From: Escherichia phage phiD2-2
Length of the DNA: 49,337 bases
Sequence record: OR861627.1
Direction: 5' to 3' (one strand)
Both the position numbers and the translations under genes were made by a program. Positions 6,109 through 49,337 of this stretch are shown piece after piece. The first letter of the stretch is position 1. Every line of letters begins with the position of its first letter. The notes under the pieces were generated by a model. That model did no database searches. It saw only the letters and a list, made by a program, of their open reading frames with translations, and was not told the origin of the DNA.

Positions 6109-6294
6109 TTAGAATTTTACATCTTCAACAAGCTCAACCATTTTGTAACCAAGTCGATAGGAGTCCCCGAACAATAACAGACCCATAAATTCATCGTTGG
6201 TTATTGACTCCTTGCCAACAGTTTTAAGCTCTCCGTTGTGAATCACGGTATCGCCGATCTTGATTTCTGATTTATGAACTAATTTTGTTTTCAT
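6109..6294 (-). CDS. hypothetical protein (61 aa)
   Basis: Track ORF immediately downstream of 6310-6495 in the same operon. Confidence 0.45.
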   Translation of the reverse strand: MKTKLVHKSEIKIGDTVIHNGELKTVGKESITNDEFMGLLLFGDSYRLGYKMVELVEDVKF

Positions 6295-6309
6295 TTACTG
6301 GCCTGTTAA

Positions 6310-6495
6310 TTAGAAGAAAGATACGTAATTTGCAATACCTTTAGCGTCGTCGTTAGGCATTGCCTTGATAGCCAGGTCATAACCAGCCTCGACCTTTTGC
6401 CTTGCTGATTCTTCGCTGTATCCCCATATAACCAGAATTTTAACTACGTTTTCTTTGTTCAGGACTTTAAGGTCTTTAGTGATGCGACGTGACAT
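6310..6495 (-). CDS. hypothetical protein (about 61 aa)
   Basis: Track ORF 6310..6543 starts at GTG; internal ATG (MSRRITKD) has GAGGAA 8 nt upstream and fits the cassette leader. Confidence 0.5.
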   Translation of the reverse strand: MSRRITKDLKVLNKENVVKILVIWGYSEESARQKVEAGYDLAIKAMPNDDAKGIANYVSFF

Positions 6496-6573
6496 TTTGT
6501 TTTTCCTCAATCTCGTTTCGATGAGGTAATTATGCCAAATCACACCGATCGAGTTTTAACAAAAAATGCTATC
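6496..6573 (-). promoter_or_regulatory. gene-boundary cassette
   Basis: ATAGCATTTTTTGTTAAAA, TATAAT, TACCTCATCGAAACGAG, GAGGAA. Confidence 0.5.
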
Positions 6574-6712
6574 AGCAATCGCTTTGAAAAATCCACGAGG
6601 ATATAAGGAACGTATCAGCTTCGTTTTGGCAGACTTGCCGCCCAGCTTGTTTTGCTGTGCAGAGTACCCGTCAGGCAGGCTTACAGGTTTTCTCTCGGGC
6701 ATGACAAAATCG

Positions 6713-7261
6713 TCAGAGGTCCCAAAGACAAGTTTTCTTCGGGTAAGCATCTCGCGGCGCAATATACATCGGGAACCAGGGGTGTGAGTCATTCTCAGGA
6801 AGATAGCCGCCATACTCCCAGGGATTGAAGGAGTGATTTGGTTTTCTCCACGCAGACGACAGGGCGCTCACCGGATTCTCAATGATGTAAGTCACGCCCA
6901 GGCTATCTCCAATGTTCGCAGCAATCCGGGCACTAGCGACAGCCTTCTCCTGGAATAACGGATCGCGTTCACGCTTGCTGGCAAAGTGTCGCGCACCACT
7001 AACAGCCAGGTCAGTGCACGGCGGGAAAGCCATAATGAAATCCGGCTTGCCATACACGCCAGCGATAGCATCACGTTCGAACGTTTCATCAATGAACACG
7101 TTCACATACTCAATGTTCGGATGCTCCACTCTGGCATTGTACTTTTCGTAATCTCCGTGATCGGCTCCGTCAAAGTTGAAGCACATCACCTTATGACCTT
7201 GCTTAGCCAGTTCATGACCTGCAAGACCGGAACCGTCAAATAGCGACCAGATTAATTTCAT
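6713..7261 (-). CDS. DNA cytosine-C5 methyltransferase-like protein, unusually short (182 aa), possibly frameshifted
   Basis: Motif I-like LFDGSGL, motif IV-like FPPCTDLAVSG (PC dipeptide, Q replaced by T), motif VI-like IIENPV; AAGAGG RBS. Overlapping frame 6556..6813 carries an RRKLVFG stretch that resembles motif VIII. Confidence 0.5.
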   Translation of the reverse strand: MKLIWSLFDGSGLAGHELAKQGHKVMCFNFDGADHGDYEKYNARVEHPNIEYVNVFIDETFERDAIAGVYGKPDFIMAFPPCTDLAVSGARHFASKRERDPLFQEKAVASARIAANIGDSLGVTYIIENPVSALSSAWRKPNHSFNPWEYGGYLPENDSHPWFPMYIAPRDAYPKKTCLWDL

Positions 7262-7470
7262 TTCGTTACCTCTTTGAATACCGTCTGCCCGTTATTGGTC
7301 AGGAAGCGATCCCATCCATTCATTGAGCGGAAAACGCCGATCTGATTTTGCTGATTGTCAGTAGCGAAGTACCCACCATCAATAAGGTAGATCTCATACA
7401 CTGATTGATTCGTGAAGCTGTCGGTGCTAACGCTAATGCATTGCACGGCACATTCAAATTTTGGTTCCAT
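7258..7470 (-). CDS. hypothetical protein (70 aa), first gene of the leftward early operon
   Basis: Track ORF preceded by CCAATCAGAGGAAT leader and cassette; stop overlaps the methyltransferase-like gene start. Confidence 0.55.
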   Translation of the reverse strand: MEPKFECAVQCISVSTDSFTNQSVYEIYLIDGGYFATDNQQNQIGVFRSMNGWDRFLTNNGQTVFKEVTK

Positions 7471-7546
7471 TGCGTGATTCCTCTGATTGGTTGATGAGGT
7501 GAATCATACCCGATCGGCAGGACTGATGTGTGGCAAAAAATGCTAT
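7471..7546 (-). promoter_or_regulatory. gene-boundary cassette heading the leftward early operon
   Basis: ATAGCATTTTTTGCC, TATGAT, CATCAACCAATCAGAGGAAT leader. Confidence 0.5.
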
Positions 7547-7615
7547 TCCAATAGTTGCTCATTATTCCACCAGCAATGGAATATCTGGAATAATTGCGAT
7601 CCCGATTGATCTAGA

Positions 7616-7690
7616 ATGATGAAATGTGATTGTTGCATGATGTGCAACTGTTGATGTGATTGTTGCTTGGAATGCAATGATTGTGAGAGG
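7616..7690. repeat. tandem operator-like units (GTGATTGTTGC with TTGCA-N5-TGCAA inverted repeat)
   Basis: Two about 30-bp units; first contains perfect TTGCATGATGTGCAA. Confidence 0.5.
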
Positions 7691-7733
7691 GAGGATCTAG
7701 TGTTACCCGGTTCGTCTGGTAGTCATCTCCATT

Positions 7734-7753
7734 TTTAGCAAAAAGTGCTATCG
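7734..7753. repeat. boundary palindrome copy at the edge of the AT-rich hub
   Basis: TTTTAGCAAAAAGTGCTATC. Confidence 0.5.
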
Positions 7754-8154
7754 ATTACACTTTACCTTGTCACGGATGTAATATTTGTCTAGAATCGCAC
7801 TTGTGACAAAATTACACACTGTGACGCCTCTAAATATACATATAGATATATGTATCTATATAATATATATAGTGTTTTTTTTATTTATATATATAGATAA
7901 TTATATTGTAATAGTTGTGTATAGTTGTCTTACATTGTCTAGCGTACTGTTGGCATATTTCTATCTGCATGTTTATATATACAGTACTTTTTTGAGAGCT
8001 ATATATTTCTATAGTGACTCTAGACAGCTAGACAAATGTTACACGGCTTAAAATTGGCTCGCAGGCATTGACAGCTCTACATCGCAATGTCACAATGGCA
8101 ATTGTTGGCACATTATGACACCATTTACACACGAATAGACAAAGAGGGTATATT
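7754..8154. promoter_or_regulatory. AT-rich divergent control hub 1 with GTGTAA/TGTCTA-type repeats
   Basis: Alternating TA tract (7840-7910), TTGTCAC/GTGACA repeats, GTGTAACATTTGTCTAG in reverse orientation near 8027-8046, TTGACA near 8069. Confidence 0.5.
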
Positions 8155-8670
8155 ATGAGCAACACCAATCAGGAATTAAAAATCACCGATATGATTCGAC
8201 TAACCTGCGATGCAATGTATCGCGACAAAGGCATGAATGAGTTCTCTTTCGTGGCTGATGATATGGCCCTCGAGGCCGCGCGATTCTACTTCCGTGACCA
8301 GGAGGTAAGTGATAGCGATCTTGAATCTGCCGCTGCCGGATGGGTGGACCAGAACCAGGGTGAGGTGGAGAAGCGATTCAAGTCTGCTTTCATTACGCCA
8401 ATCATTACCCGGCACTTTTGCAAGTATGGCAAGGTGGCAAAGGTGAAGGTAGGCCGGAATGACGCTGCAATCACAATGATAACGGTTATCGTTACCGACG
8501 AAGAGATTCCCGTGAAGAAGCGCCGCAGCCGGAAAAAAGTTAGCCTGGCCGACTGCCTGGATTCGTTTGATGTTGATGTTGGCAAGCTATCGGATAGCGA
8601 GTTAATGGTTCGCGACGTGAATGAGATCGTACGCCAGATGAAAGCACATATCGAAAAGTGCGGGCTGTAA
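8155..8670 (+). CDS. hypothetical protein (171 aa), first rightward early gene
   Basis: Track ORF with AAGAGGG RBS; acidic patches. Confidence 0.6.
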   Translation: MSNTNQELKITDMIRLTCDAMYRDKGMNEFSFVADDMALEAARFYFRDQEVSDSDLESAAAGWVDQNQGEVEKRFKSAFITPIITRHFCKYGKVAKVKVGRNDAAITMITVIVTDEEIPVKKRRSRKKVSLADCLDSFDVDVGKLSDSELMVRDVNEIVRQMKAHIEKCGL

Positions 8671-8684
8671 CGCTGATAGGTGAA

Positions 8685-8760
8685 ATAGCACTTTTTGTTA
8701 AAGCCCGGTCGAGCGGATCGGGTATTATCTTCTCATTGACACGATACAGAGGAATCGAAG
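8685..8760 (+). promoter_or_regulatory. gene-boundary cassette
   Basis: ATAGCACTTTTTGTTAAAG, hairpin CCCGG..CGGG, TATTAT, CAGAGGAAT. Confidence 0.5.
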
Positions 8761-8955
8761 ATGGAAACGCAAATTGACGTAGTGGTTGTTCAGCGAGACT
8801 CAACTCATGAAAAGGGTCTGTTCAAGAAAGGAACCGAAATCACGATCGACCTTGAGGATATGGTTGCGTATCACTCTGGCCTCACTTGGAACGTGGTGCG
8901 CGTAGGCAGCGACTACAAACTCAAAGGCTTTAACACTTACTTTGCGGAGGTTTAA
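8761..8955 (+). CDS. hypothetical protein (64 aa)
   Basis: Track ORF with cassette and GAGGAA RBS upstream. Confidence 0.55.
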   Translation: METQIDVVVVQRDSTHEKGLFKKGTEITIDLEDMVAYHSGLTWNVVRVGSDYKLKGFNTYFAEV

Positions 8956-8957
8956 TT

Positions 8958-9428
8958 ATGGCGACAATTACCGTATTTCTTGCTAAAGATGAGCTTGATG
9001 GCGAAATGTCATTCTTCGCGTTTGAGCATAAAACCGGCTCGCACTGGCACACTTACAGCCATTACACGGTTATCTCAATTGAAGCGTACGACGGCGAACT
9101 GCTCACTGATAAACTGAGTAATTTCATTGAAGCCGTTAAAGCTAGCGGCGGCTGCGAGTGGAAGGAAGATCACGAAGTTATGCGAATGTTTGAGATGGTC
9201 AATCCGGTTCGCCTTGAGTCGTTCGAGCTTGATGCTAATGTGACTATCAAGGTGAGAAAGTCGGGTGAGTTATTGCCAGGGATGCGTGTACTGACTGGTT
9301 ACTCTGGCCGTAAGGTGTGGCGCACTGTATCCAAGATTCGCCAGCGCTCGGCAACATGCTATAGCGTATTCTTTGATGATGGTTGGAATATGATGTCCGG
9401 TAGTGAGGTAAAGTATCTCACCAAATAG
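8958..9428 (+). CDS. hypothetical protein (156 aa)
   Basis: Track ORF with GGAGG RBS; TAG stop lies inside the downstream palindrome. Confidence 0.6.
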   Translation: MATITVFLAKDELDGEMSFFAFEHKTGSHWHTYSHYTVISIEAYDGELLTDKLSNFIEAVKASGGCEWKEDHEVMRMFEMVNPVRLESFELDANVTIKVRKSGELLPGMRVLTGYSGRKVWRTVSKIRQRSATCYSVFFDDGWNMMSGSEVKYLTK

Positions 9429-10247: not shown

Positions 10248-10281
10248 GATGTTAAAATGGCTGATTTTATGCACCAAATGA

Positions 10282-10449
10282 TTGGCAGTATTCAAATGTA
10301 GTGATGACCAGGAAGTTAAAGAGTGCTTTACCGTTGACAAGCCTTATAACGCATCGCTAACCAGCTTCGGGAACATCTCATTGCTTGATGATAATGGCGA
10401 CCCCTGGATATTCGACGAAGACACCGATTGCTTCGAAATTAAAGAATAG
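10282..10449 (+). CDS. possible small acidic protein (about 55 aa), TTG start
   Basis: Hand-translated open frame ending at the TAG inside the 10447 palindrome; no convincing RBS. Confidence 0.25.
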   Translation: MAVFKCSDDQEVKECFTVDKPYNASLTSFGNISLLDDNGDPWIFDEDTDCFEIKE

Positions 10450-46425: not shown

Positions 46426-47139
46426 ATGAAAGACTTTAATGATATCGAAACTATCGACTTTGCAGAAACTGGTTGCTCATTCACTCGCGAAGCAATAGCA
46501 TCAGGCGGTTATTATCAGGCATTGAAAACGCCAACCTGCAAAGAGATTTCAGGGCGTCGATACAAGGGGACAAATACCCCTGACGCTGTTCGTGATTTAT
46601 GGTCAACCCCGCGCGAGGTTATCGCATACCTTGAGGGTCGTTACGGAAAATATGATCTAGACGCTGCGGCAAGCGAAGAAAATAAAGTTTGCGAGAAGTT
46701 TTATTCCCAGGAAACAAACTGCTTAAAACGTTGGTGGGGTAAAAATAAGCACGTATGGTTAAATCCTCCTTATAGTCGACCTGATATATTCGTCAAGAAG
46801 GCGATCGAGCAAATGGAGCACAACAATCAGATTGATATTCTGTTGCCTGCCGATAATTCCACAGCGTGGTTTACTGAGGCGAGACAGAACGCGGCTGAGA
46901 TTATCTGGATTGAAGCTGACTTGACTGAAGATATCGACGGTAACGAGTACGCCAGATCTGGTCGCCTGGCTTTCATATCCGGTGAAACTGGAAAGGCGGT
47001 TGACGGCAATAACAAGGGTTCGGTAATTTTCATAATGCGCGAACTTAAAGAGGGTGAGACACAGCAAACTCACTATATCCCAATCACAAGCATTTGCCCT
47101 TCGGTGAAAAACAAGCGCGCAAAAGTGAGGAAAGTATGA
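46426..47139 (+). CDS. dam: DNA N6-adenine methyltransferase (phage Dam family)
   Basis: WSTP, DLDAAAS and NPPYS motifs; own boundary cassette upstream. Confidence 0.75.
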   Translation: MKDFNDIETIDFAETGCSFTREAIASGGYYQALKTPTCKEISGRRYKGTNTPDAVRDLWSTPREVIAYLEGRYGKYDLDAAASEENKVCEKFYSQETNCLKRWWGKNKHVWLNPPYSRPDIFVKKAIEQMEHNNQIDILLPADNSTAWFTEARQNAAEIIWIEADLTEDIDGNEYARSGRLAFISGETGKAVDGNNKGSVIFIMRELKEGETQQTHYIPITSICPSVKNKRAKVRKV

Positions 47140-47913: not shown

Positions 47914-48145
47914 CGCAGAAGATTATCAGACTATCTGGATCGGAAAAAAGCAGGTTAAGAAAATCCCTTTCTCTGATTGGTTGCCTCCTGACTTCGTTAA
48001 TGTGCTTTGCACCATCGGTATGGAACAGGAGTTGCATATAGGTTATTACTCACCAGGTAGAAACAGCATAATGCTTGAGGTTGATGGGAAACTTGTTGAG
48101 TTTAAATCTTCAGATCTCGGATTCTGGTTAAAGGCTGTGGCATGA
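47744..48145 (+). CDS. hypothetical protein in the +1 frame, overlapping 47641-47913; start unresolved
   Basis: Track ORF; protein-like downstream half (DYQTIWIGKK...GFWLKAVA) but no good RBS at the listed ATG. Confidence 0.3.
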   Translation: MLASSQTERFHLWKICREKCIECQPPHHLNFIVKKERELSENEKQQRTTSLPGLNINAEDYQTIWIGKKQVKKIPFSDWLPPDFVNVLCTIGMEQELHIGYYSPGRNSIMLEVDGKLVEFKSSDLGFWLKAVA

Positions 48146-48223: not shown

Positions 48224-49337
48224 ATGTCACAAGCTAAAATCACTACCGAACAACTTGTCGAAGAGCGCATGAACGGCCTAACACTTCGCGAGATCGCGGA
48301 AAAGTACGGTATGCACATTCGAACTGTTGAAGCTCGCCACGCAAAGTTGGCAAAAGAAGGTCACTTCCACGGTAACGAGCATGTTGCTAAGAACGTACCG
48401 GAAGGATTCATGGTAAAAGGCACATCAACGATGATTCGCGGCGATGGGACCGAGGTGGTGCGCTGGGTTAAGACCGATCAGGACCGTGAGAAGATTGCAG
48501 CAATGATGGAAGCGGCGCGTATTGCATTCTGTGAAGATCTGCCGCGAGCAAAGCCAACTGAGCTACTAACCTCACAAGGGCTTACTACAGCGATGGGTAA
48601 GCTGGCACTCTATCCGGTATTCGATCTTCATATTGGCGCGCTTGCTCATAAGCATGAATGCGGAGAGAACTATTCTACCGATGTAGCGGAAAAAGTGCTG
48701 AGTGACTTCTTTAATTACGCGATCGATATTGCTCCGAACGCAGAGAAGGCTGTTCTGTTAATCGGCGGTGACTTCCTGCACTCTGACGGACTTGATGCAG
48801 TTACTCCGGCAAGCGGTCACGTTCTTGATCAGGATTCACGATATGCTAAATTGGTGCATGTAGCGATTCGATCGGTGCGACGAGCTATAGACAAAATGCT
48901 GACGAAACACAAAGAGGTCGAAGTTCAGGTTATCGAAGGAAACCACGACCAGGCCGGGATGATTTGGTTACGCGCAGCAATGGCAGCATACTATGAAGAC
49001 GAGCCGCGAGTATTCGTTGACGTCAGTCCTATGATTCTGCATAAGACTCGTTGGGGAAATACCTTGTTGGGATACACTCACGGGCACACTATGAAAAAGG
49101 CAGACACGCGACTTGCAGCGATGGCAGCAGATTTCCGATCGGATTTCGGCGAGAGCAAGTATGTGTATACTCATAGCGGGCACTGGCATCACCAGACAAT
49201 CACTGAGCACTCGCTAGGTATTGATGAAGTACACGGTCAGTTAGGCGCGAAAGATGCATACGCAGCACGCGGAGGGTGGCGCTCATATCGCCAGGCGGCG
49301 GTAATTGTTTACGATAAGCAGTTTGGTGAAATCGGTC
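48224..49337 (+). CDS. HTH-containing calcineurin-like metallophosphoesterase (SbcD/Mre11-like?), 3'-truncated by window edge
   Basis: AAGGA RBS; N-terminal HTH-like LTLREIAEKYGMHIRTVEARHAKL; phosphoesterase motifs FDLHIG, GGDFLH, GNHD, YTHGH, SGHWHH; frame open to window end. Confidence 0.6.
   Translation, partial: MSQAKITTEQLVEERMNGLTLREIAEKYGMHIRTVEARHAKLAKEGHFHGNEHVAKNVPEGFMVKGTSTMIRGDGTEVVRWVKTDQDREKIAAMMEAARIAFCEDLPRAKPTELLTSQGLTTAMGKLALYPVFDLHIGALAHKHECGENYSTDVAEKVLSDFFNYAIDIAPNAEKAVLLIGGDFLHSDGLDAVTPASGHVLDQDSRYAKLVHVAIRSVRRAIDKMLTKHKEVEVQVIEGNHDQAGMIWLRAAMAAYYEDEPRVFVDVSPMILHKTRWGNTLLGYTHGHTMKKADTRLAAMAADFRSDFGESKYVYTHSGHWHHQTITEHSLGIDEVHGQLGAKDAYAARGGWRSYRQAAVIVYDKQFGEIG

Follow-up and report, generated by a model that had tools for sequence, protein, structure and literature searches.

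Small genes for Dcm-like cytosine methyltransferases have been described in several coliphages. In the BASEL collection the gene is labelled 'Dcm-like C5 cytosine methyltransferase', and N6-adenine and C5-cytosine methyltransferases were reported to be abundant in Drexlerviridae, although their presence did not relate in any simple way to restriction resistance (PMC8594841). Wang et al. identified the 711-bp dcm gene of the KarlJaspers-like phage K42 as the trigger of retron Ec86 (bioRxiv 10.1101/2023.08.16.553469; Cell Rep 2024;43:114857). Expression of K42 dcm was toxic only in the presence of Ec86, the enzyme raised the level of 5mC on the Ec86 msDNA as determined by LC-MS, a C82A/E128A/K175A/K176A mutant was inert, and mutation of the CCTGG in the msDNA stem-loop abolished defence (bioRxiv 10.1101/2023.08.16.553469). 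All four Ec86 escapers had dcm lesions: one carried a 2.3-kb deletion, another a 1-bp frameshift, and two shared the same upstream point mutation. A Dcm was encoded by 34 of 35 Ec86-sensitive phages (bioRxiv 10.1101/2023.08.16.553469). The same work places the native Ec86 operon in BL21(DE3) and assumes the CCWGG specificity of the K42 enzyme from the analogy with host Dcm (bioRxiv 10.1101/2023.08.16.553469).

Earlier work has thus already covered the family itself, the activity of its enzyme, the triggering of a retron by that enzyme and the loss of the gene through frameshifts. What we add here is that the 'hypothetical protein' of the T1-like phages phiD2-2 and FCWL1 corresponds to a natural disrupted dcm allele, found in several independent samples. 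The sequence analysed was the 49,337-nucleotide record of Escherichia phage phiD2-2 (OR861627.1; Tunavirus, Drexlerviridae), referred to below as the window. Literature searches on phrog_757 (the protein family to which the gene belongs), FCWL1 and phiD2-2 returned no relevant report.

A methyltransferase gene split by one G

Both open reading frames named in the preliminary description of this locus, one of 182 aa and an overlapping one of 85 aa, are present on the minus strand. The features that the analysis rests on are as follows.

6713..7261, minus strand: 5′ part of the disrupted dcm-like gene, the 182-aa ORF (ORF listing, DNA of relatives, phrog_757)
6715-6713, minus strand: TGA that ends the 182-aa ORF; residues 1-180 are authentic and are followed by a wrong-frame D and L
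6721..6723, minus strand: frameshift site, GGG on the coding strand and GG in all relatives compared (DNA alignment)
6556..6720, minus strand: 3′ remnant in the +1 frame, encoding residues 181-234 of the intact protein and a TAA (6558-6556)
6556..6813, minus strand: 85-aa ORF of the second frame, a mechanical ORF that overlaps the 182-aa ORF (ORF listing)
7258..7470, minus strand: 70-aa gene upstream of dcm; its TGA and the ATG of dcm overlap as ATGA
46426..47139, plus strand: intact gene for a second phage methyltransferase, a Dam-type N6-adenine enzyme (TIGR01712)

The methyltransferase motifs that had been noticed were all located in the 182-aa ORF: motif I (FDGSG) at residues 8-12 (nt 7240-7226), motif IV (FPPCTDLAVSG) with the Cys82 codon at nt 7018-7016, and motif VI (ENP) at residues 128-130 (nt 6880-6872). 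This ORF ends in ...YPKKTCLWDL*, and GenBank labels its product 'hypothetical protein'. The 3′ remnant encodes TSDDFVMPERKPV...LGGKSAKTKLIRSLYPRGFFKAIADSIFC and contains no internal stops. The first ~31 residues of the 85-aa ORF (MAAIFLRMTHTPGSRCILREMLTRRKLVFG) are an out-of-frame version of the region that encodes residues ~150-180, and the profile comparison found no homologs for them. The peptide RRKLVFG, for which a resemblance to motif VIII had been noted, is encoded ahead of the shift; it results from reading the PKKTCLW nucleotides in the wrong frame and is absent from the intact protein. A boundary palindrome had also been placed at the TAA of the second frame, but no inverted repeat of at least 8 nt occurs in 6480-6620, and a terminator-like site was found neither in that interval nor anywhere in 6200-8200. 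The ATGA overlap between the 70-aa gene and dcm is likewise present in SH2 and EF3-1; the two genes form one leftward operon that starts from an AT-rich region (7470-8155).

Comparison with relatives revealed the origin of the two frames. Over 6400-7500, phiD2-2 and vB_EcoS_SH2 share 99.6% identity, and 112 phage records matched this region. In the DNA alignment phiD2-2 reads CTTTGGGACC, whereas SH2, EF3-1 and ADB-2 read CTTTGGACC, such that phiD2-2 has one additional G, inserted after nt 538 of the dcm-like gene. When this G was deleted in silico, we obtained a 234-aa protein (...PKKTCLW-TSDDFVMPERKPV...IRSLYPRGFFKAIADSIFC*) that equals the EF3-1 protein in length and is 94-99% identical to the products of intact 234-aa genes in ~30 Tunavirus records. 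The repaired protein matched phrog_757 ('DNA methyltransferase') over its full length (E 5.1e-83, positions 14-217 of 247). Frame 1 alone matched positions 14-164 (E 9.7e-67) and residues 38-82 of frame 2 matched positions 169-217 (E 1.4e-9). Because the two frames match adjacent segments of a single methyltransferase family, we conclude that they are the halves of one gene. The suspicion that this was a frameshifted methyltransferase was therefore correct, in that one inserted G splits a conserved 234-aa gene.

The residues that are invariant in the phrog_757 family are all still encoded, distributed over the two frames (up to W180 in frame 1 and G207-G223 in frame 2), but a single uninterrupted ORF of 225-250 aa is absent from phiD2-2. 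On this alignment evidence, the phiD2-2 gene is to be classed as a disrupted allele of the family rather than a functional member. The change from GG to GGG shifts the reading frame after Trp180, and translation stops two codons further on. The last 54 residues, invariant ones included, are thereby lost, and the product is most likely inactive. Taken as a whole, 6556-7261 on the minus strand is in our judgement very probably a frameshift-inactivated, inherited and non-recoded allele of a small phage Dcm-like C5 cytosine methyltransferase.

The described relatives place this allele in context. The LeonhardEuler gene bas13_0055, annotated 'Dcm-like C5 cytosine methyltransferase', encodes a protein with 94% identity to the repaired phiD2-2 protein, and the 711-bp gene bas07_0054 of JakobBernoulli (Drexlerviridae, BASEL) encodes one with 56% identity and with Cys82 at the equal position. 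The numbering of C82, E128, K175 and K176 in the K42 enzyme matches the invariant positions in the phrog_757 family alignment exactly. Once the extra G is removed, the phiD2-2 gene agrees with K42/KarlJaspers dcm, bas07_0054 and bas13_0055 in family, in length class and in these four residues, and, as do the K42, JakobBernoulli and LeonhardEuler genes, it occupies the beginning of a leftward operon made up of small genes. Of these four genes, only that of phiD2-2 is split by +1 nt after codon 180 and lacks a full-length product.

The phrog_757 family and the truncated product

Homologs from a large protein collection comprised 4,605 clusters at E≤0.001, nearly all of 225-250 aa, and tblastn located the gene in 1,521 phage records, chiefly from phages of Escherichia, Klebsiella, Salmonella and Shigella. 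The gene is common to most Drexlerviridae and to many other enterobacterial phages, and its product is normally about 234 aa long. Among 31 diverse members, the invariant residues were G10-S11-G12, D34-H35-G36, P80, C82, T83 and E128-N129-P130, together with K175, T177, W180, G207, R217-S218-L219 and R222-G223. Since P80, C82 and T83 do not vary in these members, PCT in place of PCQ, which had been regarded as an anomaly, is by this alignment the normal motif of the family and no defect.

By sequence, the family is only barely connected to the canonical enzymes. The C5-methyltransferase profile PF00145 gave only 13.2 bits on the phiD2-2 gene (E 0.058, against a gathering cutoff of 22) and covered the N-terminal ~100 residues; precomputed PF00145 matches exist for a few relatives. 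Neither frame nor the repaired protein matched an NCBIfam model, and the family profile matched no PDB sequence even at E 10. FDGSG, PPCT (Thr for the usual Gln) and ENP (Pro for Val) are nevertheless all present and invariant in the family alignment, and a structure model built for an intact relative with 94% identity adopts the C5-methyltransferase fold, with DNMT3A/3B as the nearest structures. Compared with canonical C5 methyltransferases (PF00145: M.HhaI, M.HaeIII, E. coli Dcm, DNMT3A/3B), the phage family has PCT rather than PCQ and ENP rather than ENV, is ~100 residues shorter than the bacterial enzymes and has a very short stretch after the motif VIII-like PKKTCLW. The stretch between PKKTCLW (175-180) and the C-terminal helices, which begin at ~201-211 in the model, is only ~30 residues long, and neither the alignment nor the model shows a large, variable target-recognition domain separating motifs VIII and IX. 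The observation that the 182-aa product has no such domain was thus roughly right, but it holds for the whole family, in which the region from the motif VIII-like segment to the C-terminus is small. This compactness, with its minimal recognition region, fits DNMT3 as the nearest fold. We read the intact enzyme as a SAM-dependent DNA cytosine-C5 methyltransferase with a compact DNMT3-like fold and a short C-terminal helical region; for one family member, that of K42, the addition of 5mC to DNA has been demonstrated. Its target is presumed, by analogy, to be CCWGG.

What the truncation removes can be read from the same model and alignment. The lost residues, 181-234, form three model helices (201-206, 211-217 and 222-232) and hold six invariant residues (G207, R217, S218, L219, R222 and G223). 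In solved C5 methyltransferases such as M.HhaI, the C-terminal motif IX/X region helps to form the AdoMet pocket. Given the lost helices, the invariant residues among them and this role of motifs IX/X, the 182-aa product is predicted to be inactive.

One alternative is a functional miniature enzyme: the 182-aa product could methylate DNA by itself, or with the help of a C-terminal piece started at the ATG at 6813. It does retain motif I, the catalytic PPCT, ENP and PKKTCLW, the second ORF has an ATG and spans the missing C-terminus, and a 181-aa allele found elsewhere ends at almost the same place. However, the listed full-length members of the family are 225-250 aa long, shorter entries being fragments or split alleles on full phage contigs, and three predicted helices and six invariant residues, in a part of the protein that contributes to the AdoMet pocket in solved enzymes, would be missing. 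The ATG at 6813 has a GGAG only 1 nt upstream and is identical in intact relatives, which argues that it did not evolve as a start codon. We therefore consider a working miniature enzyme very improbable, and the idea of a truncated catalytic-core enzyme raised in the preliminary description does not fit a family whose full-length members carry invariant positions in the missing 54 residues.

Origin of the extra G

Because an extra base in a short G run could arise during sequencing or assembly, with a true GG and an intact 234-aa gene in the phage, we compared the allele across records. An identical 182-aa product is recorded for phiD2-2 (WRH07549.1) and for FCWL1 (WYM31016.1, from PP558327.2). 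The identical 182-aa ORF together with TGTCTTTGGGACCTCTGA was found in PP558327.2 and in Logan assemblies of SRR34831173, SRR34831182, DRR869217 and SRR35248293, in copies 97.6-99.95% identical to phiD2-2. A one-off sequencing error is very unlikely, since the allele was recovered independently in isolates and read sets. Its 3′ remnant is free of stops in every copy, as expected if the lesion is recent.

A base-calling artefact would be compatible with the form of the lesion, which lengthens a short homopolymer, and with the single-base indels seen in this gene in several GenBank relatives, some of which may be errors. It would also be compatible with a second unique +G at 10285 that is missing from the first version of the FCWL1 record. 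The same GGG and 182-aa product in two separate isolates and at least four other runs (SRA, DDBJ) argue against it, however, and a 3-base G run is an atypical context for such errors. We regard this explanation as unlikely. The best reading of these comparisons is that the extra G represents an inherited mutation of a small clade of near-identical phages, comprising phiD2-2, FCWL1 and copies from environmental or laboratory read sets.

Over the whole genome, phiD2-2 and SH2 differ by 7 short indels in 49 kb, two of which are phiD2-2-specific +G insertions in conserved ORFs (6721 and 10285). The second lies in a plus-strand ORF at about 10256-10449, where phiD2-2 reads ATGATTGGCAG and SH2, EF3-1 and LeonhardEuler read ATGATTGCAG. 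It shifts the frame after codon 9 of a conserved 63-aa ORF (SH2 gp07 homolog, MADFMHQMIAVFKC...), which is intact in SH2, EF3-1, LeonhardEuler and the first version of the FCWL1 record (192 nt). The absence of this G from the first FCWL1 record would account for the lengths of 49,337 bp (phiD2-2) and 49,336 bp (FCWL1). Judging by the 10285 insertion, the phiD2-2 record may contain some base-calling errors.

The FCWL1 records have features of their own. PP558327.1, the first version, is scrambled relative to phiD2-2 and SH2: every minus-strand CDS is reverse-complemented in place and intergenic pieces run forward, with the consequence that all 78 CDS are annotated on the plus strand. Some blocks have also been moved (for example, window 6310-6543 is record 1127-894, and window 8671-9428 is record 48437-49194). 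PP558327.2 is collinear with phiD2-2 in the ~6.5-kb stretch compared. The Logan contig of SRR35248293 has 22 differences from phiD2-2, all within 6551-6676, behind the identical frameshift and 182-aa ORF, and its 3′ remnant is that of an EF3-1-like allele (QHSKLGG...SLSPRGFFKAIADSTFC). This haplotype could be the result of recombination or of a chimeric metagenome assembly.

A programmed +1 ribosomal frameshift around CUU UGG G could in principle supply some full-length enzyme from the split gene, by a mechanism loosely like that of prfB (CUU UGA C). CUU would occupy the P site, as it does in prfB, the +1-frame remnant is intact in every copy of the allele, even in the one whose 3′ haplotype differs, and the extra-G allele persists in several samples. 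The prfB shift, however, depends on an upstream Shine-Dalgarno-like element and on a stop codon in the A site. At the phiD2-2 site (UGU CUU UGG GAC CUC UGA) the A-site codon is UGG (Trp), the sequence before CUU, GAAGAAAACUUGU, has no Shine-Dalgarno-like element, and a slip at CUU would substitute the invariant W180. Other relatives have GG at the site and encode the protein in one frame, and all intact relatives are in frame at 6721-6723.

Relatives with broken genes carry their lesions elsewhere: -1 at nt 360 in ADB-2, -1 at nt 581 in IME18, +2 (CG) at nt 269 in LHE71, a nonsense codon at codon 62 in DELF2 and several deletions in vB_SsoS_008. A shift site is thus not conserved among relatives, whose lesions are scattered. 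Recoding is unlikely because relatives keep the frame here and have their lesions at other positions, and on the comparison with relatives and the site context we rejected a programmed frameshift, to which we assign hardly any probability. Among the causes that had been put forward for the frameshift, a real inactivating mutation fits best; sequencing error is disfavoured by the presence of the allele in several assemblies, and recoding by the relatives that are in frame.

Further small variants were observed in this gene. The SH2 copy (record 47919-47960; window 6556-6566) has an additional T in the run before the stop (T7 versus T6), which replaces the last two residues and adds 9 more to give 243 aa; this is either a further small lesion or a sequencing error. 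Clusters at 90% identity that include further T1-like assemblies (~47-kb contigs) contain truncated or split copies of 181, 112 and 158 aa. The 181-aa allele ends in ...KKTCLWT*, one residue from the phiD2-2 break and on a different backbone, and may point to a hot spot of mutation close to TGGACC.

DNA methylation and a possible link to retron Ec86

The Dam-type enzyme noted at 46426-47139 is well supported, with a match to TIGR01712 at 4.4e-71 (237.7 bits, cutoff 97). Judged from the two genes, phiD2-2 has most likely lost its cytosine enzyme and relies on Dam only. For relatives whose gene is intact, the proposed dual modification by Dam and Dcm is plausible; in phiD2-2 the cytosine enzyme is most likely lost, and 5mC should not be assumed in annotating this phage. 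CCWGG occurs 99 times in the genome, compared with 52±7 expected from dinucleotide shuffles, and is therefore enriched rather than avoided; GATC is neutral (236 observed, 221 expected). Because the sites are not depleted, the CCWGG counts are uninformative on methylation status.

One reason why loss of the Dcm-like enzyme would be tolerated, or even favoured, may be that retron Ec86 (Eco1) senses this enzyme as its trigger. The phiD2-2 lesion is of the same class as those of laboratory Ec86 escapers of K42 (for example, the 1-bp deletion of dG451), a single-base indel that leads to a premature stop, although it occurs in another phage genus (Tunavirus rather than KarlJaspers-like) and at another position (nt 538 rather than nt 451). 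FCWL1, which carries the extra G, was propagated on BL21(DE3) pLysS, an Ec86-positive host. E. coli B and BL21-type hosts are dcm-minus. The gene is disrupted in 2 of 3 close relatives propagated on BL21 (FCWL1 and IME18), compared with 4 of 35 others (Fisher p = 0.059), an association that is suggestive only. Selection by Ec86 is opposed by IME167, which was grown on BL21(DE3) and keeps an intact gene, and by disruptions in phages of hosts with no known Ec86. It is thus possible, though we hold this view tentatively, that the extra G became fixed in nature as a retron-escape mutation of a T1-like clade (phiD2-2, FCWL1 and the copies from several unrelated runs) in E. coli B/BL21-type hosts.

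If so, the allele would be the field counterpart of the laboratory Ec86 escapers and would help to explain the recurrence of disrupted dcm in Tunavirus (about 6 of 38 close relatives). Should the Ec86 link hold, surveys of disrupted dcm genes could map retron pressure on phages outside the laboratory and could assist in forecasting the T1-like contaminants that do well in cultures of BL21.

The AT-rich stretch at 7470-8155 contains few ORFs and separates the leftward operon of the 70-aa gene and dcm from rightward genes. Several sigma-70-like sites are present on both strands, and record starts fall within it (window 7700 for linear SH2 and 7632 for the first FCWL1 version). The genome 'end' is thus conventionally placed in this stretch, which is probably also a region of divergent early promoters.
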